From Alistipes sp. (lineage in GTDB: Bacteria; Bacteroidota; Bacteroidia; Bacteroidales; Rikenellaceae), in the NCBI GenBank assembly GCA_045540675.1, contig JAZQHQ010000001.1, positions 1,401 to 65,400 of the forward strand: a stretch of DNA of 64,000 bases, given 5' to 3'. The translations under genes and the position numbers were made by a program. The notes beneath the pieces were generated by a model. The model was given only the letters and a program-made list of their open reading frames with translations. It made no database searches and was not told where the DNA came from. Shown here one piece after another: positions 7,530 through 18,207 of the stretch (position 1 is the first letter of the stretch; each line of letters begins with the position of its first letter).

Positions 7530-7589
7530 AGTTTAACACTTCGTGCGCATTCGCCTTACTACGAATCACGCCAAAGCGGTGCAAAGATA
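7530..7589 (-). promoter_or_regulatory. rpsO promoter (TATCTTTG) and hairpin 5' leader, possible S15 autoregulatory element
   Basis: -7 box at 7582-7589 on the minus strand; cgtg-attcg/cgaat-cacg hairpin in the leader. Confidence 0.5.
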
Positions 7590-7723
7590 CAAATAAAATT
7601 AAGAATTAAGAATTAAAAGTTAAGAATTTACACAAAAAATATAAAAATCAGCCGATTATGGCATTTTGAGGAGTGAAACGGGCGCGCTGTTTTGTACGAT
7701 TTTTGAATTATTTTGGTGGCAGA

Positions 7724-7798: not shown

Positions 7799-7872
7799 CG
7801 CGGGGTGGAGCAGCTGGTTAGCTTGCCGGGCTCATAACCCGGAGGTCGGAGGTTCGAGTCCTCCTCCCGCAA
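7799..7872 (+). tRNA. tRNA-Met(CAT), initiator (fMet) type
   Basis: Cloverleaf: acceptor CGCGGGG/TCCCGCA with C1:A72 mismatch, anticodon arm CCGGG-CTCATAA-CCCGG, T arm GGAGG-TTCGAGT-CCTCC; CCA not encoded. Confidence 0.97.
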
Positions 7873-9436
7873 CTAAACGAGACAAGTCGAAAGATTTGTC
7901 TCTTTTTTTATCTTTTTTATTTTTATAATTCACTGAAATAGTGCGTGTTATATCAAAGAACGAATTGGTGCTATTGGTTAGAAAACTTCTTTTTTCTTTA
8001 TCCCATTCAACACCCTTTGGAAAGACTAATTTTTGTATTTTTTGGCATACATCAAAGTCTTGTTTCTTCCAATAAACACCTAAATTACAAGCAATTACAA
8101 TAGTAGTCTCTATGTATTCGGCAAGGTTAGATAGATTTACGGATACTCTCTCCAACTCTGCCTCCGCTTTATGCTTATTTATCTCCAAATCTCTAATAAC
8201 TTCCAAATAGACATCTTTCTCGATTGCACCAATTGCATAGTTCTTTTTAGCACTCTTTATTTGGGTGGTTAAGGTTGCGATATTCTTCTTGATATTATCT
8301 ATATCGCTGATTTGTGTATGCGTTTTCTCTTCAAATTTCTTTTTTAAAACTATCGTCAATATAGGTAGCAATTCATTAGGTACAGCGAATCCATTGAGCA
8401 ATTCGGCATACTTTGAATGAATTTCCTTCGCTGACACATTTACGCTACCCTCCTTGCCACTATACTTATAATAATCCAAATCCTTCTTTTTAACAGTATA
8501 TCCTGATAGTGTATGCCCTAATGCGTGTATATGGTTTTTCAGCGGGAAACGAGGTGTTTCTGTCGCTTGCTCGTAACCTTTGTTGTTGCCCATAAGAATA
8601 CTTTGCACCTTCTCGAATAGTGCCTCGGAGATAAGAGGTTCTTGCTTCCCTTTTACAATCGCTCCTTTCAGCAGACTATGCTCAATTCTACCACAATAAA
8701 ACTGATTTTGTAGGCAGTTGGATAGTCTTTGTTTGCTAATATCCAGTCCTCTTAATTTTAATCTCTCTACAACCTTTGCTTGGGAAAGATTTGGTTCATT
8801 TGCAATCCATACCCAAGCATTTTTTAATATCTTGCCTTTGTCATTGACTGTTAATTTGTGTTCTTTATTTACCTTCTTGGAGTCATATCCAAGCGGTGGT
8901 TTGCTGTACCACTCGCCTCGGTTCAAACACGACACCATACCTTCGTAGCACTTATGCCTACGCATCGCATTATCAATATCTGCAATGATAAGTAGAATAG
9001 CAGATATTTGCTCTGACAGCACATTGCCCTCATCAATAGGTTGGTTTACAGATTTGATGATAACACCATTGCGTTTTAGTTGCCCTTTATATGTCAATCC
9101 CTCGTACATATTTCTGCTGAATCTATCATAGTCGAAAACAACTATTGTATCCACCTCTGGATCATTCATCACAGCACCTATCATTTCAAGAAAGTGCTCT
9201 CCTGCAACCTTCGCTGATTCAAATGTGCCACCAAAACAGTGCTTTACCTCTTTATTTAACGCTTCGCAGTAACCATTACAAGCGTCCATCTGCGTTTGAA
9301 TGGAGTGGTTCGTCTTAAACTGCTCCTCCGATGATACTCGTGTCCAAATTACTGCCTTGCCTTTACCACTCTTTGAAATAGCGAGTCTCTTTTCTACAAT
9401 CTTCTCAATACGAGTTTTCTTCTGTTTTTTAATCAT
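7832..9436 (-). CDS. Large serine recombinase (integrase); C-terminus runs antisense into the tRNA
   Basis: WTRVSSEEQ catalytic Ser, DRFSR, KPPLGY recombinase domain, NQFYCG, EPLISEALFEKVQ, coiled coil; ends RLVAGGGLEPPTSGL = reverse complement of the tRNA 3' half. Confidence 0.95.
   Translation of the reverse strand: MIKKQKKTRIEKIVEKRLAISKSGKGKAVIWTRVSSEEQFKTNHSIQTQMDACNGYCEALNKEVKHCFGGTFESAKVAGEHFLEMIGAVMNDPEVDTIVVFDYDRFSRNMYEGLTYKGQLKRNGVIIKSVNQPIDEGNVLSEQISAILLIIADIDNAMRRHKCYEGMVSCLNRGEWYSKPPLGYDSKKVNKEHKLTVNDKGKILKNAWVWIANEPNLSQAKVVERLKLRGLDISKQRLSNCLQNQFYCGRIEHSLLKGAIVKGKQEPLISEALFEKVQSILMGNNKGYEQATETPRFPLKNHIHALGHTLSGYTVKKKDLDYYKYSGKEGSVNVSAKEIHSKYAELLNGFAVPNELLPILTIVLKKKFEEKTHTQISDIDNIKKNIATLTTQIKSAKKNYAIGAIEKDVYLEVIRDLEINKHKAEAELERVSVNLSNLAEYIETTIVIACNLGVYWKKQDFDVCQKIQKLVFPKGVEWDKEKRSFLTNSTNSFFDITRTISVNYKNKKDKKRDKSFDLSRLVAGGGLEPPTSGL
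7879..7909 (+). terminator. Element-supplied terminator for the tRNA at attL
   Basis: gagacaagtc-GAAA-gatttgtctc 10-bp stem (one G-U) plus T7. Confidence 0.85.
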
Positions 9437-9599
9437 AAATTTCTTCGGTTTTCACTTTATTATTCTTGTACCACACATATCCGATTTCCGCTATTTCATC
9501 TAATCCATTAAGTATGGTTATTATATCGTCTTCGTTGGTTATCCCCAACTTGTTAAATTCTTCAATGTATCTATTTTCTAAATCATCTTTCAGAAACAT
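9429..9599 (-). CDS. 56-aa acidic protein translationally coupled to the LSR
   Basis: Manual translation MFLKDDLENRYIEEFNKLGITNEDDIITILNGLDEIAEIGYVWYKNNKVKTEEIYD; its stop overlaps the LSR start (ATGATTAA). Confidence 0.7.
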   Translation of the reverse strand: MFLKDDLENRYIEEFNKLGITNEDDIITILNGLDEIAEIGYVWYKNNKVKTEEIYD

Positions 9600-9845
9600 T
9601 ATTAAATTAGAACTTCGTGCTTTCGCACTCCCCTCGTTCTTCTTGATTTTGAGGTTGAGGGGTTATTCGCTTTCGCCTCCTACTCGGTTAATTGGTAGGT
9701 TTTCTGTTCGACAGGGGATATGCGCAAAACCCTTGTACCATATAGGCACAATAATCCTTCTCTATGGACTCATACTATTCTAAAATTTTTAATTGAAATA
9801 GGCGACAGAATCGTCTAACAAGAGCATTTCAACTCTCTTGCTGTG

Positions 9846-9853
9846 CAAATATA
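9846..9853 (-). promoter_or_regulatory. -7 promoter box upstream of the small ORF-LSR operon
   Basis: TATATTTG on the minus strand. Confidence 0.6.
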
Positions 9854-9886
9854 CCAAAAAATTTTGAATTTATAAACAGCTGGCTA

Positions 9887-10513
9887 CTAATTAGATAAAA
9901 TTTTCTGCAATTTTCTCAAAGTATTTACCGATGTTGAGGTTATTGCTTGTACATTTCTTAATGACAGTCCTTTTTTTAGCAACTGAATTTCTTTTTGGTA
10001 GTCTGTCTTCATTTGTTCGACTGATTTACGGTATCCCTCCTTTCTGCCTACCTTACCACCGCACTCTCTAAAATGGTTATAACCCGACTCCATTCTGCAA
10101 CGGATTAGACTTCTTTCCAAACTGTTGAACTGTGCAAGGATACCCATCACCAACTGCGCAATCGGATTGGGCTGTCCACTTGGTAGCAATGTTTCGAGTC
10201 CGTTCTGATGTATGTAAACAGATATTTTGCGATTTGTAAGATAATCTATCACACTCAGGAAGTCCACCGCTCGTCTTGAAAGACGGGAACACTCATAAAT
10301 TAAGACTTTATCTACCTTGTGATTTTCGGTAAAGGCGAGTAGTTTGGTTAATGCTTCACGCTCCTCAACCTTCTTGGCACCGCTTACCTTCTCGGTAAAC
10401 TCCGCCACCACCTCATACTCCATCTTCTGTGCATACTCTCGGAGTTCTGCCACTTGTCTATCAAATTCCTGAGTTTTGGTACTAACTCGTGCATATATCA
10501 CTACCTTTGTCAT
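9887..10513 (-). CDS. Small serine recombinase (resolvase/invertase family)
   Basis: IYARVST, SRLSR, C-terminal HTH (GLSLRNVQAITSTSVNTLRK). Confidence 0.95.
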   Translation of the reverse strand: MTKVVIYARVSTKTQEFDRQVAELREYAQKMEYEVVAEFTEKVSGAKKVEEREALTKLLAFTENHKVDKVLIYECSRLSRRAVDFLSVIDYLTNRKISVYIHQNGLETLLPSGQPNPIAQLVMGILAQFNSLERSLIRCRMESGYNHFRECGGKVGRKEGYRKSVEQMKTDYQKEIQLLKKGLSLRNVQAITSTSVNTLRKLQKILSN

Positions 10514-10654
10514 ATTGGTTATAGTTTAATTTTGTATGACAAAAATAATAATATATTATTAAATAAACAAATTTTATTAATATAATAATATGAATTAATT
10601 TGAATTTATTATGTATATGGTATTAAATAGGCAATTGACTTTTGCACCAACAAA

Positions 10655-10673
10655 AAAGGAGGCGTGTGCCTCC
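10655..10673 (-). terminator. Terminator after the 152-aa gene
   Basis: ggaggc-gtgt-gcctcc hairpin followed by T6 on the minus strand. Confidence 0.7.
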
Positions 10674-10698
10674 ACTTCAATCAAGACTGTGATAATCT

Positions 10699-11157
10699 TT
10701 ATAGTATCCTAAAATCAGGCCGATAACCTCTTTTGTATTCTGTTAGATGCTTAATTATCTCAGCATCTTTAATCATACAAGGAAGATCGTGCGTGAATTC
10801 AAGAATTATATCCTCTTTGGTTATTTGAAATGTCTTTCCTACAAGATAGTTGTGTAAAGGTGATGTAGAGTCTGTTACATTATCAGGAGCAACATCAATT
10901 GCTTTAATATCGTGTTTAGATGGCAATAACCTTATGACTATAAATTTTTCATTCTCTGCATTAAGTTTTGATAACTGACTTGATGCTATATCATACAAAA
11001 CACTAAAATCGTCACTCCTCACAACGCATACTGCATCATACTCAACTCCTTTATGTAATCCATCTTTTAAGATGCTATCCCTATTCTTGGCAGGTGTGAT
11101 ATGATAGAAAGGTAAATTTTTATCGATATATTCTTGTACTGTCATCGCTTTATTCAT
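10699..11157 (-). CDS. Putative ADP-ribosyltransferase-fold protein (Tpt1/KptA/DarT-like)
   Basis: FYHITPAKNRDSILKDGL (H-x-T...N..SIL..GL), AVCVV, FIVIRL, ITKEDII spaced like ART core strands. Confidence 0.6.
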   Translation of the reverse strand: MNKAMTVQEYIDKNLPFYHITPAKNRDSILKDGLHKGVEYDAVCVVRSDDFSVLYDIASSQLSKLNAENEKFIVIRLLPSKHDIKAIDVAPDNVTDSTSPLHNYLVGKTFQITKEDIILEFTHDLPCMIKDAEIIKHLTEYKRGYRPDFRIL

Positions 11158-11407
11158 TCTCTTTGGGTATATATATTAATACAAATACACTTTTTTGTAT
11201 CTCTAATGAACATTTGACATCTTGTTCATTTGTATATTCAATATGGCAATATGCCTGAGATTTTATGTTGTTATTTTCGTCTTTGTAAATTTTGTTGTAC
11301 TCTTTGATAAGATATACTTCCATTGGTAGATTAAAAATTTCGATAATATCTTTCTCAATAGATAGGTATTCATTAGTAGGTTTGCGATAAAATTTTTGTA
11401 GTCCCAT
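11150..11407 (-). CDS. 85-aa hypothetical protein coupled to the ART-like gene
   Basis: ATG start, 8-bp overlap with the next gene (ATGAATAA). Confidence 0.65.
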   Translation of the reverse strand: MGLQKFYRKPTNEYLSIEKDIIEIFNLPMEVYLIKEYNKIYKDENNNIKSQAYCHIEYTNEQDVKCSLEIQKSVFVLIYIPKENE

Positions 11408-11443
11408 AATTGTAAAAGGTTTAGTGGCTAATAAATAATTTTA

Positions 11444-11470
11444 AGGTTGGTGGCGGGAAACCACCAACCT
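11444..11470. other. Perfect 10-bp hairpin downstream of the lectin gene
   Basis: aggttggtgg-cgggaaa-ccaccaacct; no U-tract in the gene direction. Confidence 0.7.
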
Positions 11471-11499
11471 GATTGTTAAATAGATAAATAGTTAAATTG

Positions 11500-14400
11500 T
11501 TAAAAAGCGAGGACAGCACGCACAGATATTTTGTAACCCTTAGTAGCGTAACCGTCTGAAATACCAAAACTGAAATTGACACCGCAAGCGTTGTTGCTAT
11601 TGTATTCAGTAGATGACCAATAATCTTCTGTCCCGAAAGCGGTATATCCATTTGTAGAGAGAATTGAGTTTATGGTTGATTTATTATTGTAAATCGTATA
11701 TAATTCATTAAACGCAGGAAGATACCAATCCGTACCATAATCTGAACACCACTTAAATGCAGGATATTTAGTTTCCCAAGATGATAATGCTTTAATTATT
11801 GCCATATTAGTAGTTCCATTATCACTGTCTATCGCTGAGGTTGTAATCCCTGATGTACTCCACTTCAAAGATGAACCTTCGGCAACAGACACCATCTTGC
11901 CCGCATTATATGGAGTCTTTTCGATATATACAACACCAAGTCCTGTGGTATCAAGTTTCTTTGTAGAAGAAAGGTTTGCATTGAATAACTCTACGCCTTT
12001 AAGTGCTGTATTTGAAGTTAGGTCAATATCGGTAATTGCCAAACCTGATGCAACCAACACTTCAAGCAGTGTATTGTACTTTGTATCAACCACCGAAATT
12101 TCAGCGTTGTTACTTATATTAAGATATGTAAGCGCAGTGTTGTTACGGATATTGAGTGTCAAGAGGAGATTGTTTGCAATATCGAACTCCTGCAAAGCTG
12201 CATTTGCCGTAACATCGATTTTTCGCAGTTGGTTATTGTTGCAGTAGAACTTCACAAGCGAGGCGTTGTCCGATACATCGATAGAGGAGAGTCTATTGTT
12301 GTTTGCATTAATCTCTGTAAGTTTTTTGTTATTGGATAAGTCGAGAGATCTAAGGCGATTAAACGAGCAGTTTAACTTTTCGAGGTTGGTAAAATACTCG
12401 ATACCCGCAAGCGAGGTTGTCTGTGGCATAAGTCCCATAATGTCAATCTCGGTGATGTTCTCTGCCTCTGCCAACGAAATTTCGCTATCAGCATCGGTAT
12501 CAAACTTCTCGACAAGATATGCCTTGAAATTTACATCAGGAATATAGACTGTATTGGTTGTCCAAGGCACCATATTTACATAGTCGGAAGTTAAACAGTT
12601 GTAACCATTCGATACCTCCAAGCGCACATTTGCAGAGATTTCGTTACGGAAGAATCCCTCTTCGAGGTTTGTACCCGTGGCAACTACGGTCAAGATACCA
12701 TCTTTTGCCGATGCGCCCACAACAGTGAGGTTTACAAATTCGCCTACTGCAGCACGGGTTTGAGCATAGACGGCCTTAACGCTCAACGCATCTTCCCAAA
12801 CTTCAACCAACTCCTCGGCAACAGCAGCAGGACGCACCTCATATTTAAGGGTTGCACTGCCTGCGGTGATTGTGCCATTGTTCTCGGTGTAGTACATTGT
12901 TGCCTTGCAATCCGAAAACTCAGGAACAAAACTCAACGACTGAATGCGCTCGATAAGGGCAGCAATCTGCTCCTGCATCTCGGCGATATCTGCTTGCATA
13001 TTGTAAATGGTGAGTTTGATAGTCTTAACCTCTTGTTCCAAAGCTGTAACACGAGCATCGAGAGCATCTATTGTAGCGTTAATAGTTGCCACTTCGTTGT
13101 CTATACGGGTATTGATGGTTGTAACCTCCGTAGCGATAGCATCACGGAGTTGTCCATTCAAGGTGTTGATGGCGGTTTTGATTGCCTCCTTGTATGCTTC
13201 GGTAATCTCAGCAGCGGTGTTGTTGAGTTCACTTCTCAATTGTGCAATAGAGGCGGTGTTTTCGGAAATCGCCTGTGCGTTATTGCCAATAGCGGTTGCA
13301 TTGGCAGAGATAAGGGCAGCATTCTTGGCAATCTCCTCTGCGTTCTTGGCAATGGTGCGAGTGTTGGTATCTACATTTGATTGCAAAGAGGTAATTGCAC
13401 TCTTATTGCTGTTGATAAGAGTCTCGTTTGCCTCGATAAGAGATTTATTCTCGTCAATCTTTTGGCTGTTGCCCTCTATGTCTTCGCTATTCTCTGCAAT
13501 TGCCTGCGCATTGGCAGTTATCTTGGTGGCATTGTTTGAAATCTGCTCTGCATTATCCGCAATGGCGAGTTTATGTGTTGCAATTTCGCCCTGTGCTGAT
13601 GATAAATCTTCACGCAAAGCATCTATCAACTCCTTGTTGTCTGAGATATTCTTGGTGAGTTGCTCCGAGAGTTCGCTGATAAGATTTTCAAGATATGCCT
13701 TCTGTGCTTCGAGTTTGCTATTGAACTCCTGCATAATGTCGGCAAGCATCTGATTAACCTCCTGCATAGTGTAGTAACCTGCGAGTTGGTTATTAACCCA
13801 CTGTTGCATCTTTGTCTCCGAAGCGGAAATAGCATCTTTGATTGCTTGTGTATATGCTGCCTCAACCTCCTCCTTTGCTGCCGATATAGCATCTGTATAT
13901 GCTTTGGTAATCTCTGTTACCTTCTGTTGGATATTCTTGTTCAAGGTTGATACTGCCGCCTCGATATCCTCCTTAATTTTGGTGTTAAGGCGAGTTTCAA
14001 GGGCGGTAAGACTCTTGTTGATTGACTCTATCTGCGTCTTGATACTTGCGACTTCTGCTGACAATTCATTATGTTTTTCGAGAGTTGCAAAGGTTTGAGA
14101 CACCCAATCCTTTGTACTCTGAATTTCGCCATTGACATAACTCTCCAAATCGTTGATTTTATCCTCCAATGCCCTGTCCTTATTCTGTAAAGAGGTGATA
14201 GCATCGTTGATTTGTGCTAACTCGCCCTCCAATTCCGACTTTACAGATGCAAGTTGTGCCAACACATCAGATTTTGCAGTTGAAATGTTGTTTTTCAACT
14301 CCTTCTCAATACTTTCAATCTCTTTGTTTGTCAGTTCGATTGATTTTTGAAGATTACTTGCAGTGGACTGCAAATTCTCGATGTACCCTTTCAACTCCTT

Positions 14401-14583
14401 GTCTGTTTTTTTCAATTCGGGCAAAGTAGCATTGATTGCATTTACCTGCTCTTGGAGCGATGCGATTTGGGTGTTTTCAATCTCGTCAAGACGATTGTTG
14501 ATATCATCAATCGCCTCTTCAAACTTTTTGCAACTTGGCAACATCATTGCCACGACTGCAACTAACAAAAATAGTTTCTTCAT
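11500..14583 (-). CDS. Surface lipoprotein: long coiled coil, beta domain with TRA motif, LRR, C-terminal DUF1566/C-type-lectin-like domain
   Basis: MKKLFLLVAVVAMMLPSC lipobox; heptad repeats; FDTDADSEISLAEA cap then LxxLxCxxNxLxxLDLS repeats; WYLPAFNEL and YWSSTE...VRAVLAF. Confidence 0.85.
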   Translation of the reverse strand: MKKLFLLVAVVAMMLPSCKKFEEAIDDINNRLDEIENTQIASLQEQVNAINATLPELKKTDKELKGYIENLQSTASNLQKSIELTNKEIESIEKELKNNISTAKSDVLAQLASVKSELEGELAQINDAITSLQNKDRALEDKINDLESYVNGEIQSTKDWVSQTFATLEKHNELSAEVASIKTQIESINKSLTALETRLNTKIKEDIEAAVSTLNKNIQQKVTEITKAYTDAISAAKEEVEAAYTQAIKDAISASETKMQQWVNNQLAGYYTMQEVNQMLADIMQEFNSKLEAQKAYLENLISELSEQLTKNISDNKELIDALREDLSSAQGEIATHKLAIADNAEQISNNATKITANAQAIAENSEDIEGNSQKIDENKSLIEANETLINSNKSAITSLQSNVDTNTRTIAKNAEEIAKNAALISANATAIGNNAQAISENTASIAQLRSELNNTAAEITEAYKEAIKTAINTLNGQLRDAIATEVTTINTRIDNEVATINATIDALDARVTALEQEVKTIKLTIYNMQADIAEMQEQIAALIERIQSLSFVPEFSDCKATMYYTENNGTITAGSATLKYEVRPAAVAEELVEVWEDALSVKAVYAQTRAAVGEFVNLTVVGASAKDGILTVVATGTNLEEGFFRNEISANVRLEVSNGYNCLTSDYVNMVPWTTNTVYIPDVNFKAYLVEKFDTDADSEISLAEAENITEIDIMGLMPQTTSLAGIEYFTNLEKLNCSFNRLRSLDLSNNKKLTEINANNNRLSSIDVSDNASLVKFYCNNNQLRKIDVTANAALQEFDIANNLLLTLNIRNNTALTYLNISNNAEISVVDTKYNTLLEVLVASGLAITDIDLTSNTALKGVELFNANLSSTKKLDTTGLGVVYIEKTPYNAGKMVSVAEGSSLKWSTSGITTSAIDSDNGTTNMAIIKALSSWETKYPAFKWCSDYGTDWYLPAFNELYTIYNNKSTINSILSTNGYTAFGTEDYWSSTEYNSNNACGVNFSFGISDGYATKGYKISVRAVLAF

Positions 14584-14673
14584 AACAGTAAAGTATTAAA
14601 AATTAAACAATTATTAAAATGTTCGTTCTGTTATGACAATAAAGAAAGTGTGGAGAAACACTGTTCGTCTATC

Positions 14674-14894
14674 AATCTGATGGTTCTGACAAAACCTTGA
14701 CAACAATAAACGATGCGATACCCCACACCCGTAATATGCAGAATAGGGTTGCAGAATGCTCCCAACCATACATATACAAGAAATGAGTGCTATTCGTTGT
14801 CCTGTTGTCGTAAAAACTGTCAGATTTTCAGATTAGGACTGCAAAAAACACTTTCAATATGTCCGTCAATCTATTGATTGACAAGGCAAATATA
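14674..14894 (-). promoter_or_regulatory. Promoter (TATATTTG at 14887-14894) and long structured 5' leader of the lipoprotein gene
   Basis: Interrupted inverted repeat 14674-14834 (blocks aatctga, tctgaca, gacaaca, aacga) plus gtcaatc-tatt-gattgac hairpin. Confidence 0.6.
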
Positions 14895-14983
14895 AGCATT
14901 TTTTGTTTCAATGTTCTCTAAAAGAGAAACTTTTTGAATAGCACTCTGTGAAGTATCGCTCTAAATGATACAAAAAGTGAAGG

Positions 14984-15313
14984 TTAAAACACCTTCACAA
15001 TTGACTCCCAACGGAAACTACGCCACGCTGATTTTTCAATGTCAAAATAGGCGGTGGTGGAGTAAATTTCACGACTAACACCCCTACCGTTGGTATATTT
15101 GTAGGCAAGAGTGGCATTTGTTGTTCCCCACGCCTCACGGATCTCTCCGTTCTTCTTGATGTAAAGGAAGTGTCCCACACCTGTACGAAGTTTATGCTTC
15201 AAATTCTCAATCATCATCGCCTTTGCCCCTGCAACAAGGAGATTTTGAGTGCGCTGAGCAATTACATTCATTCGTACTGCTGTTGTGTCTGTTATAATCA
15301 ATGCGTTTGTCAT
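14984..15313 (-). CDS. SH3 beta-barrel / WYL_2 (DUF2693)-like protein
   Basis: FLYIKKNGEIREAWGT...YFDIEKSAWRSF pattern; likely start MTNAL at 15313. Confidence 0.75.
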   Translation of the reverse strand: MTNALIITDTTAVRMNVIAQRTQNLLVAGAKAMMIENLKHKLRTGVGHFLYIKKNGEIREAWGTTNATLAYKYTNGRGVSREIYSTTAYFDIEKSAWRSFRWESIVKVF

Positions 15314-15354
15314 AGTGTAAGATTTTTTATTACAGTTAGTTAAAATTTTAATTC

Positions 15355-15519
15355 TTAATACCAAGTTGAAGGTTTAGTCCAACCCTCCAATTCATACCAA
15401 GCATCGAGCGCTGCATATCTGCTGCGACCAAAACTTGCAACCTTATTGCCCGTTGCAATCTCCCATACGCCCCAACCACTGCCTGAGCAACCAATCTGAT
15501 ATTTTCTCTCTCGTGCCAT
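15355..15519 (-). CDS. 54-aa Trp/Gly-rich small protein
   Basis: Manual translation MARERKYQIGCSGSGWGVWEIATGNKVASFGRSRYAALDAWYELEGWTKPSTWY; -7 box at 15553-15560. Confidence 0.7.
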   Translation of the reverse strand: MARERKYQIGCSGSGWGVWEIATGNKVASFGRSRYAALDAWYELEGWTKPSTWY

Positions 15520-15552
15520 ATTTTATTAATATCATATCCATTATTTCTACTA

Positions 15553-15652
15553 CAAAGATAAAACTTTATTATTAATAATCCAAATTATTTTAACATTTTA
15601 TTTTAATTTTATCTAAATAATTTAACATTCTGATATTTATTTTCTATCTTTG
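15553..15652. promoter_or_regulatory. Divergent promoter pair
   Basis: TATCTTTG on the minus strand (15553-15560) and plus strand (15645-15652); repeated tttaacatt between them. Confidence 0.7.
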
Positions 15653-15671
15653 TCTAAAATTTTGGGATAGT

Positions 15672-15965
15672 ATGGCAAAACTACGAGTAAAGCAGATTGT
15701 AAAGGAGAAGGGTTTAACATTGGCAAAAGTGGCTGAGATGTTGGAAATCCACCCTGTAAATTTAAGTACCACCCTCAACGGTAATCCAACCATCGCAACA
15801 TTGGAGAAGATTGCAAATGTATTGGGAGTAGATGTTACCGACTTAATTGAAACCGAGAACAAACCTATTGTAAGTGGTTTTGTAAAGGTTGATGGAGAGG
15901 TTATTGAAATCACTTCTGTTGCCGATTTGGAACAGGCATTGAATAAGGCAAAGGAGTTGAAGTAA
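15672..15965 (+). CDS. XRE-family helix-turn-helix regulator
   Basis: KGLTLAKVAEMLEIHPVNLSTTLNGNPTIATLEKIANVLGV. Confidence 0.92.
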   Translation: MAKLRVKQIVKEKGLTLAKVAEMLEIHPVNLSTTLNGNPTIATLEKIANVLGVDVTDLIETENKPIVSGFVKVDGEVIEITSVADLEQALNKAKELK

Positions 15966-16184
15966 TGCCCTTCAATTTTTGATACTTTTTAGGTATCAAT
16001 TTTTGAAATAATTAACTGATAGTTTTTAATCATTTTTTGATTAAATTCTGTCAGTTTTTTTGTTTTTAACATTACTGATAATACTCTACTTTTCTTTGAA
16101 AAATAATTGCACCATATTTCAATATCTATCTTTTTATTTTTCAGTTTGATAGTCTTAAAATATATGCAGTGATAAGGGTGGTTA

Positions 16185-17033
16185 CTATCTTATGCTACCA
16201 CTACACAATATATCTTTCCAAAGTAGTCGCTTTCTACCTCTTCGAAATCTTATTACCCTACTAAGAGCATCGTGGAAAATATCTGTTAGGACTTCTCTGT
16301 TGAATAGTAAATTTGATTCATCTTCGCTTTCAAACCGTTTGAGATAATCGTAATTCAACCGAACTTCAAGACGGTGCAAAGATTTGGGACTGCCGTAGAA
16401 CTCTGTTACATAAGATTTGTGCGAACTCTCCTTTATCTCTGCCAACTTGTTGTATGCACATACATATATCCCATTCCTCTTATTTTGCACTGCTTCTCTC
16501 TGACAGCAGTAGAAAGTAGGATCCTTTAACCTATCAAGAGTAACCTTGTATGTGATATGCAGTTCAGGAATACTCTTTTTTCTATCGTATATCTCTTTAC
16601 CATTGACGATAGTTGCGACACTCTTATCCTTGTATAACTTGCGAATGGTGTATACAAAGTTCTTTTTACTATCCGTTGCCAAGTCTAACGATGTGATATT
16701 GTTGTAGGTTAGATTTAAGGTGCTTTTTAACTCTCTTAATATATCTGCCAAGTTGCTCTCATATAGCAATCTGTTATCAATCTTTAACCAAATATAACTA
16801 CTGTCATCATCTCCATATCGCCCAAAATAAATATGCCCACAATCCTTGTCATATAACAATACACGGAAATAGTATTGAAAGTGCAACCCCGATATTCTAA
16901 TTATAGAAAATTCTCCAACCTCAATCCGCTCGCCAATGCCGACACAGCGAAGTGCTTCTAATGTTTCAGGTTGTGCTATGTAACACAACCTTACTCCATC
17001 AATAATCACCTTACCCAACTTTTCATTGCTCAT
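16185..17033 (-). CDS. Rep_trans-like rolling-circle initiator / MOB_T-type relaxase
   Basis: ITSLDLATD, YNKLAE and RLEVRL motifs in Rep_trans order; likely start MSNEK at 17033 overlapping the upstream ORF. Confidence 0.65.
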   Translation of the reverse strand: MSNEKLGKVIIDGVRLCYIAQPETLEALRCVGIGERIEVGEFSIIRISGLHFQYYFRVLLYDKDCGHIYFGRYGDDDSSYIWLKIDNRLLYESNLADILRELKSTLNLTYNNITSLDLATDSKKNFVYTIRKLYKDKSVATIVNGKEIYDRKKSIPELHITYKVTLDRLKDPTFYCCQREAVQNKRNGIYVCAYNKLAEIKESSHKSYVTEFYGSPKSLHRLEVRLNYDYLKRFESEDESNLLFNREVLTDIFHDALSRVIRFRRGRKRLLWKDILCSGSIR

Positions 17034-17223
17034 CACTTTTAGAAGATTTGACACTATTATTGTCATTCCCATATTTGGAAGGGATTGAGTCCCACACACG
17101 CTTTAATGATTGGGATAGGTGCTGACGATGCCAATAACTTTTTTTCTTACCTTTAAGACTTTGACTGATTTTCATCTTTACAGAGTCATCAAGTTCTCTG
17201 TATTTGCGTTTATATTCACTCAT
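17023..17223 (-). CDS. 66-aa basic protein with NUMOD3-like repeats
   Basis: SVKMKISQSLKGKKKSYWHRQHLSQSLK. Confidence 0.7.
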   Translation of the reverse strand: MSEYKRKYRELDDSVKMKISQSLKGKKKSYWHRQHLSQSLKRVWDSIPSKYGNDNNSVKSSKSDEQ

Positions 17224-17567
17224 AATTTTATAAAGCAGGGATTTTTATTTCCTGTCATATATAAATATGGTAGCAAAAGTAAAAAAGTAAAGTATAGTAG
17301 AAACTTTTTGAAAAAATAGTTACTTAAATTTTTAGTAACAGACAACAAGTTCTTACTATTCCTCCTACTTTACCCATTAATTTTAAGGCGGGATACGCCT
17401 GAGTAACTAATTGATAGATAGTCCTATATCATAGGTAGATATTAGTCTATTTTTGAAAATAAACTTTGTCAAACAAAGTGGGATAAATTGGGTAAAAGAA
17501 GGGAAAATCTGTTTTTATAGACAATGCTCGAATAAAAGATAATCTTTTAAGTTAAAATAGTACAGGC

Positions 17568-17591
17568 AGAGGGAGGTTTTCGCCTCCCTCT
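17568..17591. other. 9-bp perfect hairpin near the right end of the element
   Basis: agagggagg-ttttcg-cctccctct. Confidence 0.65.
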
Positions 17592-17633
17592 ATTGATTAA
17601 AAAGTACGATAATTAAATTGATACATCAACGCC

Positions 17634-17720
17634 TTATTCAATCTTATTGTACCACTTCCAAAAGGCAATTACTAAGTCGTAATCAATTAAGAAACGGTTA
17701 GATAAGTTGATTGTTTGTTC
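17634..17720 (-). other. Detached alternative 3' end of the LSR gene (attP arm)
   Basis: In frame with the LSR across the shared core: EQTINLSNRFLIDYDLVIAFWKWYNKIE*. Confidence 0.75.
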
Positions 17721-18080
17721 AACTAAAAGAGAATAGTCGCCTATTCTCTTTTTTTGTTGCGCTCGGAGGCTCGGTCAGTCGGTGGCGTCTCGGCAAACTT
17801 GTCTGCGAGTTATGCGATAGTAGTTGTTGCTACGCAACTACGATAACAGATTAAAAATCAATAGTTCAAATAAATTTGACTACTGCTTTTCAATCTATTC
17901 TCGAAACTTTCAGTTTAACTCCTATCGCATATCTCTCCGGTCTGCTCTCAACTGCTGCGACCGTTCGAGTCCAATTTACAATGAAATGGTTAGACAGGTT
18001 GTTTGTTCAACTAAAAGGGGTTAATCGAATGATTGTCTCTCTTTTTTTGTTGCGTTCGGAGGCTCGGTCAGTCGGTGGCG
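17691..18080 (+). repeat. Two imperfect ~95-bp direct repeats (attR-like), 288 bp apart
   Basis: gaaa(c/t)ggttaga...gtttgttcaactaaaa...tttttttgttgcg(c/t)tcggaggctcggtcagtcggtggc at about 17691-17785 and 17983-18078. Confidence 0.85.
17728..17755 (+). terminator. Terminator right of attR (probable pre-insertion tRNA terminator)
   Basis: agagaatag-tcgc-ctattctct plus T-run. Confidence 0.8.
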
Positions 18081-18207
18081 GTGTGGCAGAGTTGTCTTTG
18101 CTATTGGCTAACTAAAAACGCTTGCGCCGAAAATAATTCTTAATTTTTAATTCTTAATTCTTAATTATATTTGTATTTTTGCAAAAAATATAAATAAAGG
18201 TATAGCA

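Follow-up and report, generated by a model that had tools for sequence, protein, structure and literature searches.

Mobile elements that integrate at tRNA genes classically use tyrosine integrases. Serine-recombinase integrative and mobilizable elements (IMEs), on the other hand, have been described as inserting into dispensable protein genes, which they disrupt (PMC5704250), and a gut-wide survey counted 12 clusters of serine-integrase IMEs in Bacteroidetes but did not describe them (PMC6907783). Here we analyse an element family that breaks both of these habits, through one member in Alistipes sp. The window analysed is a 64,000-nt stretch of contig JAZQHQ010000001.1; the host genome (G000) is a metagenome-assembled genome (MAG) that is 90% complete. 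We consider it likely that the window holds the integrated copy of a 9,850-bp site-specific mobile element, belonging to a family of Bacteroidales elements whose large serine recombinase (LSR) targets the initiator tRNA-Met gene at its 3′ end. In our coverage of the literature, which is incomplete, we found no description of this family, of serine integrases that target an initiator tRNA, or of a serine-integrase gene that runs across attP, the attachment site of the free circle.

Two groups of described elements come close. The Firmicutes serine-recombinase IMEs (Tn4451 and streptococcal elements; PMC5704250) are likewise small, with a single LSR, very short terminal direct repeats and no transfer machinery of their own. 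They differ in that the present family targets an essential tRNA gene, which it enters at the end and restores, and in that our element is found in Bacteroidota and carries a gene of predicted Rep_trans fold, a small resolvase in addition to the LSR and an LSR gene running across attP. The NBU1/NBU2-type elements of Bacteroides share with it Bacteroidales hosts, a size of ~10 kb, insertion at a tRNA 3′ end and, presumably, dependence on functions supplied in trans. In contrast to the LSR and Rep_trans-fold protein of our element, NBUs have tyrosine integrases, a MobP relaxase and a primase (PMC5704250); nevertheless, some relatives of the element (L023–L025) do use a tyrosine integrase, at tRNA-Ser, together with the same Rep core.

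The target gene, a tRNA-Met(CAT), was located by ARAGORN at 7799–7873 on the plus strand (Rfam tRNA, 58.9 bits). Read by eye, it begins CGCGGGG and ends CCCGCAAC, so that C1 stands opposite A72, and its anticodon stem contains GGG/CCC pairs; a C1×A72 mismatch and GGG/CCC pairs in the anticodon stem are hallmarks of bacterial initiator tRNA. Two further CAT tRNAs in the assembly differ from it in sequence. The gene, which forms the B arm of the attachment site, shares its last 4 nt with the attL core CAACTAAA (7870–7877, plus strand), and a second copy, the attR core, lies at 17720–17727 (plus strand). The two copies bracket a block of 9,850 bp (7878–17727), and G+C content, ~0.50 in the flanks, is 0.29–0.46 across roughly 7.5–17.8 kb. 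The 8-mer alone is not significant, since 2.4 copies would be expected in the window and four are present; the boundaries rest on the empty sites of relatives and on a conserved arm beside the right-hand core.

In G020, the closest species in our genome set (its tdk flank is 92% identical), the tRNA-Met gene is followed by CAACTAAA, a hairpin (aagagaatag-gtcg-ctattctct), a T-run, ~100 nt and tdk, and the hairpin that follows the right-hand core of the window matches this one. The G020 empty site reads cccgCAACTAAAaagagaatag, one base (an extra A) away from the empty site foreseen by the original prediction, which had been made on the letters of the window; at the window locus the empty site would read ...cctcccgCAACTAAAagagaatagtcg.... 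In a second related species, G001, the tRNA-Met gene lies ~45 nt from the tdk promoter with no element between. The presence of an empty-site allele in two related species demonstrates that the block at 7878–17727 is an insertion. The original prediction had placed an element at the initiator tRNA-Met between these same ends and had named the lack of an empty-site allele in close relatives as the finding that would tell against it; both G020 and G001 lack the element, and its boundaries stand. The low-G+C block is thus confirmed as foreign DNA integrated where the initiator tRNA-Met gene ends.

Because the first 4 nt of the 8-bp crossover core are the tRNA end, insertion leaves the tRNA sequence unchanged. 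The terminator, in turn, is replaced by the P′ arm (7878–7909, plus strand), an element-borne hairpin and T-run whose opposite strand codes for LSR residues ...KKRDKSFDLSRLV. A hairpin and T-run stand immediately after the core in all 48 related loci; an inserted element always supplies a new terminator to the tRNA. At the other end, the P arm occupies 17670–17719 (plus strand) and contains a motif, GGTTAGAnAnnTnGAT, that is common to the right ends of L034, L068, L070 and L072.

All genes of the element lie on the minus strand except that of the XRE regulator. The LSR gene (7832–9436, minus strand) encodes 534 aa in its integrated form, of which the last 12 (AGGGLEPPTSGL) are read from the antisense strand of the tRNA gene. 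The integrase was called an LSR at the outset, and its domains agree: PF00239 Resolvase matched residues 28–174 (8.6e-15), PF07508 Recombinase matched at 1.7e-7 and the phrog_95 integrase profile at 1.3e-41, and the catalytic serine, S35 in WTRVS, is invariant across 17 relatives. The zinc-ribbon PF13408 is recorded for some homologues and had no match in the window protein, whose length of 534 aa fits the LSR class; so, on sequence grounds, does the short shared core, 8 bp at both ends and in the G020 empty site. Overlapping the LSR start by 8 nt is a gene for a 56-aa acidic protein, p56 (9429–9599, minus strand), which has no family match in Pfam, PHROGs or NCBIfam.

The arrangement of the LSR gene has a further consequence. 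Joining the element ends in silico gives a predicted circle (attP) junction (gtttgttCAACTAAAcgagacaag; ...gattgtttgttCAACTAAAcgagacaagtcg...), and the LSR frame stays open across the core, exchanging AGGGLEPPTSGL for EQTINLSNRFLIDYDLVIAFWKWYNKIE and growing from 534 to 550 aa. Since attP lies within the LSR gene, the enzyme made from the free circle would end in a conserved stretch of ~27 aa, drawn from the P arm, instead of 12 tRNA-derived residues. The same joining in five delimited relatives yields open tails of 26–28 aa, and the circular-form tails of the six elements follow one pattern, L-V-x3-I/L-x-L/I-S-N-x-F and then a hydrophobic repeat. Three metagenome proteins (P0043, P0048 and P0052) bear tails of this kind, and on the contig of P0052 a P arm, the core and a P′ hairpin stand one after another, with a Rep gene behind them, which is the joined (attP) form; a junction of this type indicates that an excised form exists for relatives. 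The tail is also maintained as coding sequence across divergent relatives. Together these observations are good evidence that the LSR would exist as two isoforms, one made from the integrated element and one from the free circle.

The integrase gene of the fusellovirus SSV1 and the mycobacteriophages with integration-dependent immunity, such as BPs, offer precedents for an att site placed inside an element's own gene, such that integration alters the gene product. They resemble the present case in that the integrated and free states make different proteins. They differ in using tyrosine integrases, the SSV1 gene being split and the BPs attP lying in the repressor gene, whereas the serine integrase described here would keep its whole catalytic body and swap a short C-terminal tail only. 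The integrase may in this way sense its own integration state. A more elaborate version, which we put forward tentatively and think rather less probable than its failure, is that tail exchange is a built-in state sensor: the 550-aa free-circle enzyme, with its conserved amphipathic tail, and the 534-aa integrated form would differ in stability, activity or response to p56, the direction of recombination would be set in part by the location of the gene, and the arrangement would be common to the whole clade of LSRs that target initiator tRNA.

The family is widespread. Counting matches below 1e-30, there are at least 197 LSR homologues, nearly all of 531–540 aa and ending in LVAGGGLEPPTSGL or a close variant, which is again antisense tRNA. 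The search in other Bacteroidales that the original prediction had proposed was made as a scan of one genome per prokaryote species, and returned 47 LSR loci from Alistipes, Tidjanibacter, other Rikenellaceae, Candidatus Coprenecus, Candidatus Cryptobacteroides and unnamed Bacteroidales. In 42 of the 47 the last LSR codons lie antisense within a tRNA-Met(CAT) gene, in the same register as in the window; tRNA-Arg, tRNA-Ala and tRNA-Pro are targets at one locus each. Most target tRNAs have the CGCGG start and a mismatched 1:72 pair, and those of L053 and L055 look like elongator tRNA-Met. The original prediction regarded tRNA targeting by an LSR as atypical; this holds against the classical pattern of tyrosine integrases, but within this LSR clade it is the rule. 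Where record titles name a source, it is the rectum, colon, caecum or faeces of cattle, buffalo, yak, deer or horse, and the family is common in genomes of Rikenellaceae and other Bacteroidales assembled from animal gut and faecal samples. Its natural attP/attB pairs, which can be taken from genomes, could serve as tools for a site that is both conserved and essential, in organisms for which good genetic methods are wanting.

Right ends could be located in five relatives, giving elements of 6.0, 7.4, 7.6, 9.0 and 9.1 kb. Within the genus, a close LSR is present in 10 of 151 genomes. A sign of movement comes from L030, in another species, which shares with the window a 3-kb segment, resolvase–p56–LSR–tRNA, at 94.5% identity. 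The chromosomal flank of L030 is 80–83% identical and has a different neighbourhood, and the remainder of the L030 element differs; a 94.5% block against an 80–83% flank argues for recent horizontal movement of a mosaic element.

The integrase, too, appears exchangeable. Metagenome contigs L023–L027 carry elements of ~4.5 kb that adjoin tRNA-Ser(TGA) and encode a Rep 37% identical to that of the window. Their order is a tyrosine integrase, a 67-aa gene, Rep, two unrelated small genes and a 210-aa resolvase (45% identical), followed by chromosomal genes. The 67-aa gene is 53% identical to that of p66, a 66-aa basic protein whose gene precedes and overlaps that of Rep in the window (17023–17223, minus strand). 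A core of p66, Rep and resolvase thus travels with either kind of integrase, and by comparison of gene orders the integrase module has been swapped within one element family.

Rep itself is encoded by a 304-aa open reading frame (ORF) at 16185–17099 (minus strand). Because homologues begin MSNEKLG, the start is probably near 17033, giving ~282 aa and the overlap with p66. The family is rare, with 22 clusters among 5.8 billion proteins, none of them annotated. A confident AlphaFold (AF2) model built on the alignment had a mean predicted local distance difference test (pLDDT) of 79 and a predicted template-modelling score (pTM) of 0.79, and the only significant Foldseek matches were Rep_trans initiators (4cij, E 2.9e-7; 4cwc, 4.5e-5; 4cwe, 3.9e-4), all with probability 1.0 and with modest template-modelling (TM) scores of 0.38–0.51. 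Y216, K218 and E221 (YNKxxE) are invariant, as is the stretch H242-R-L-E-x-R-x-N; the Y-x-K-x-x-E stretch resembles the active-site tyrosine region of RepC/RepD. The initiators matched in fold are those of the pT181 family (RepD/RepDE and RepSTK1; 4cwc, 4cwe, 4cij), and the predicted fold of Rep matches these only. They differ from it in that Rep is 11–16% identical to them and below the Pfam gathering score, and in that its gene is chromosomally integrated and coupled to that of the 66-aa basic protein. We therefore keep the earlier name ‘Rep_trans-like initiator’ as a predicted fold assignment and not as Pfam membership. A distant homologue (27% identity) is encoded on pRGF00029, a 4.1-kb circular plasmid with three genes from an uncultured bacterium, which is typed non-mobilizable.

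A candidate replication origin lies at 17536–17590, where the strongest fold of the non-coding arm, a 10-bp GC hairpin (17563–17590), stands beside a conserved block of 25 nt, TACTATTTTAACTTAAAAGATTAT. L028, with a Rep of 47% identity, retains the block at 87% conservation, and we infer that this site may function as the Rep origin.

Recurrence of the remaining core genes was counted in 48 other loci, many of which are incomplete. p56 lies just upstream of the LSR in 41 of the 48. The separate resolvase that had been predicted is a 208-aa small serine recombinase of the resolvase/invertase type (9887–10513, minus strand; Pfam Resolvase, 7.7e-32), present in 33 of the other loci. A WYL_2 (Sm-like SH3) protein (14984–15364, minus strand; Pfam WYL_2, 9.1e-22), found in 21, is preceded by a 54-aa ORF taken from the ORF list (15355–15519, minus strand), and divergent from this operon is the expected XRE/Cro-type helix-turn-helix regulator (15672–15965, plus strand; Pfam HTH_26/HTH_3), found in 14. 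p66 also occurs in 14 and this type of Rep in five; a second Rep type, with the motifs IYDKxxE and RFExNLN, is present in the attP-form contig L029 and in the L070 element. When the element proteins were scanned against Pfam, PHROGs, NCBIfam and PADLOC, no conjugation, packaging or phage structural family matched, in accord with the earlier claim that the element lacks a type IV secretion system (T4SS), a coupling protein and phage structural genes. With an integration/excision module of its own, the LSR, and no mating-pore genes found, the element is in these respects like an IME.

In the mechanism that we propose, the LSR would join attP to the tRNA site and, with p56 as directionality factor, would also excise the element. 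Replication of the excised circle would fall to the Rep_trans-fold protein, with an origin in the 500-bp arm that separates p66 from attP, and multimers of the circle would be resolved by the small resolvase. XRE and WYL_2 would set the switch between states, while a surface lipoprotein and an ADP-ribosyltransferase (ART)-like gene pair, described below, would be cargo. Since no transfer genes travel with the element, movement from cell to cell would use machinery supplied in trans; the original prediction had suggested a replicating circle that depends on a helper ICE or phage.

Several findings weigh against this scheme. The circular-form tail of this particular element has no match among 5.8 billion proteins. 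Rep scores below the gathering cut-off of Pfam Rep_trans (PF02486; E 0.0046, 17.0 bits against 29.6), an equally weak match being returned by 8 of 16 Rep relatives, and a sequence-profile search of the PDB gave no meaningful solved relative. Neither an oriT, a canonical relaxase, a coupling protein nor a packaging gene was identified in the element, and the host genome yielded no TraJ or coupling protein, although a 90%-complete MAG can lose such elements. Finally, to name p56 as a candidate directionality factor or LSR partner is a guess, made from its position and conservation.

The alternative that survives best is a classical IME, in which the Rep_trans-fold protein would be mainly a MobT-type relaxase that nicks an oriT in the arm beside attP, a Bacteroidales conjugative element would carry the strand and replication would be secondary. 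In the Tn916/ICEBs1 family, MobT proteins, which are related to Rep_trans, act as relaxases and also initiate replication (PMC5704250); the lack of transfer genes in the element is as expected for such an IME, and the 12 clusters counted in gut Bacteroidetes show that serine-integrase IMEs occur there (PMC6907783). However, MobT relaxases and their T4SS partners have been described in Firmicutes only (PMC5704250), the host genome lacks a detected TraJ or coupling protein, and the nearest free-living relative of Rep is on a 4-kb plasmid typed non-mobilizable. We regard this alternative as possible but on balance improbable. Under the scheme that we prefer, conjugative mobilization, with Rep serving as a MobT-like relaxase, would rank above phage packaging as the means of transfer.

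A phage satellite, whose excision would be induced by a helper phage, whose circle would be amplified by Rep and whose DNA would be packaged in helper capsids, seems to us quite unlikely. The small size of the element and its combination of integrase, XRE switch, replication module and cargo do resemble satellites. The host genome contains one phage terminase, and two IMG/VR contigs hold LSRs 54–55% identical to that of the window. Nevertheless, no match related to capsid remodelling, small terminase, portal or pac/cos was found in PHROGs, and neither the 50,697 phage records searched nor IMG/VR contains a member of the Rep family, a result that speaks against a viral interpretation. The part of an IMG/VR contig that we examined contains recombinases, a methylase and a primase, and not virion genes. 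This contig is L080 (UViG_3300045988_124822, classed viral). Its LSR relative, of 577 aa, has no tRNA at its end, and the 13.6 kb read also holds genes for a small resolvase, an XRE regulator, a DNA methylase, a tyrosine integrase and a primase, but none for virion proteins.

That the block is a fixed, immobile island, a remnant retained for its cargo whose att-like repeats are historical, would agree with the unmatched circular-form tail and with a decayed junction next door, which shows that such elements die at this site, but is very doubtful given that the core ORFs are all intact, that the P arm still yields the full conserved tail and that the recombination block shared at 94.5% identity with another species speaks for recent transfer.

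The larger part of the putative cargo is a gene for a 1027-aa surface lipoprotein (11500–14583, minus strand), with a lipobox, a coiled-coil stalk, a leucine-rich repeat region and an Lcl_C-like end (Pfam/NCBIfam). Relatives with 47–64% identity occur in five other elements (L030, L035, L036, L046 and L054), and the element appears to move large surface lipoproteins between species. The host chromosome carries a paralogue of the coiled-coil lipoprotein (G000 C24:13570–15651; 70% DNA identity over 2.1 kb), and contig C69 a paralogue of its C-terminus. We considered whether the C-terminus (11500–11640) is the target of a diversity-generating retroelement and rejected this: the 90%-complete genome has no RVT_1 match and no template-like copy of 11460–11760. 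An invertible promoter upstream of the gene, flipped by the resolvase, was likewise rejected, as only weak inverted repeats are present. A leader of ~350 nt upstream of the gene (14540–14894) has eleven more copies in the genome, in both orientations and with ~70–75% identity, on C69, C82, C78, C22, C29, C44 and C52. It has no significant Rfam match, and the genes of a surface-protein family may have this regulatory leader in common.

The second cargo candidate is a pair of genes that overlap by 8 nt, encoding a 152-aa protein (10699–11157, minus strand) and an 85-aa partner (11150–11407, minus strand); among the 48 other loci and the window, the pair is found in the window element only. The 152-aa protein belongs to a family of 62 homologue clusters in which H19 is invariant and R47 and Y104 are nearly so. 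Profile searches against the PDB gave weak matches to DarT (E 0.014) and to KptA/RNA 2′-phosphotransferase (0.067). In Foldseek, its confident AF2 model (pLDDT 87.5) matched Tpt1/KptA best, with probabilities of 0.8–0.9 but E values of at least 0.035 and TM scores of 0.34–0.43. An assignment to the ART superfamily (Tpt1/KptA/DarT-like) is thus plausible, not established. The earlier description of an ‘ART-like pair’ accordingly finds weak profile and fold support for the 152-aa protein, but not for its partner, which has no family match in Pfam, PHROGs, NCBIfam or PADLOC and was not found in related loci. The pair matched no defence-system model in PADLOC.

To the right of the element, outside its boundary, sequence comparison identified a relic P arm with a 4-nt deletion, followed by a third CAACTAAA (17985–18015, plus strand; core at 18008–18015). 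This core is followed in turn by a broken hairpin and a repeat of ~60 nt. If the relic junction were used as the end of the element, the LSR tail would be truncated to EQTTCLTISL*. G020 lacks the 288 bp that separate the second core from the third (17728–18015), and its empty site looks like a hybrid of the two copies. A second, LSR-mobilized mini-circle, a tandem duplication and a relic of an earlier element were each considered as the origin of the 288-bp unit, and none explains every detail. The core at 18008 probably marks a decayed relic junction, its history being uncertain.

Within this interval, 17768–17973 is one copy of a structured repeat of ~205 nt, of which the genome contains six full copies. 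The others are at G000 C82:47562–47754, C79:27546–27750, C65:42612–42800, C33:44586–44774 and C19:4070–4260, and these five lie ~45 nt downstream of a tRNA-Ser, two tRNA-Leu genes, the transfer-messenger RNA gene and a partial tRNA at a contig end. The copy at tRNA-Met fits this ~45-nt rule once the element is removed, which supports 17727 as the true boundary. The consensus fold of the repeat has 37 pairs, with 92.7% of cells paired and compensatory changes at 19 pairs; none of 500 shuffles reached it, and slid controls gave at most eight compensatory pairs. The repeat has no Rfam match. In five of the six copies the repeat ends at its 3′ side in GTTCGAnnCC, in agreement with the T-loop of the tRNA next to it, and the agreement extends to the odd variants GACCCC and GACTCTCG. 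The repeat is also present in G001 and G005 and is absent from the other LSR-element loci.

The 5′ box of this repeat (GGTCAG..GTGGCG..GGCAGAnTTGTCT) occurs in addition as solo copies, at 18061–18105 of the window, G000 C82:46015–46054, L021:1245–1278 and L003:2188–2234; among such boxes, one follows the relic junction, one follows an ndk gene and one is in the G020 empty site. Finally, a 49-nt AT-rich motif (TGCAAAGATACAAATAAAATTAAGAATTAAGAATT...) flanks the tRNA locus at 7580–7628 and 18135–18183, the two copies being inverted and 94% complementary. Dozens of sites in this genome and in relatives carry the motif, which looks like a shared promoter-region repeat.

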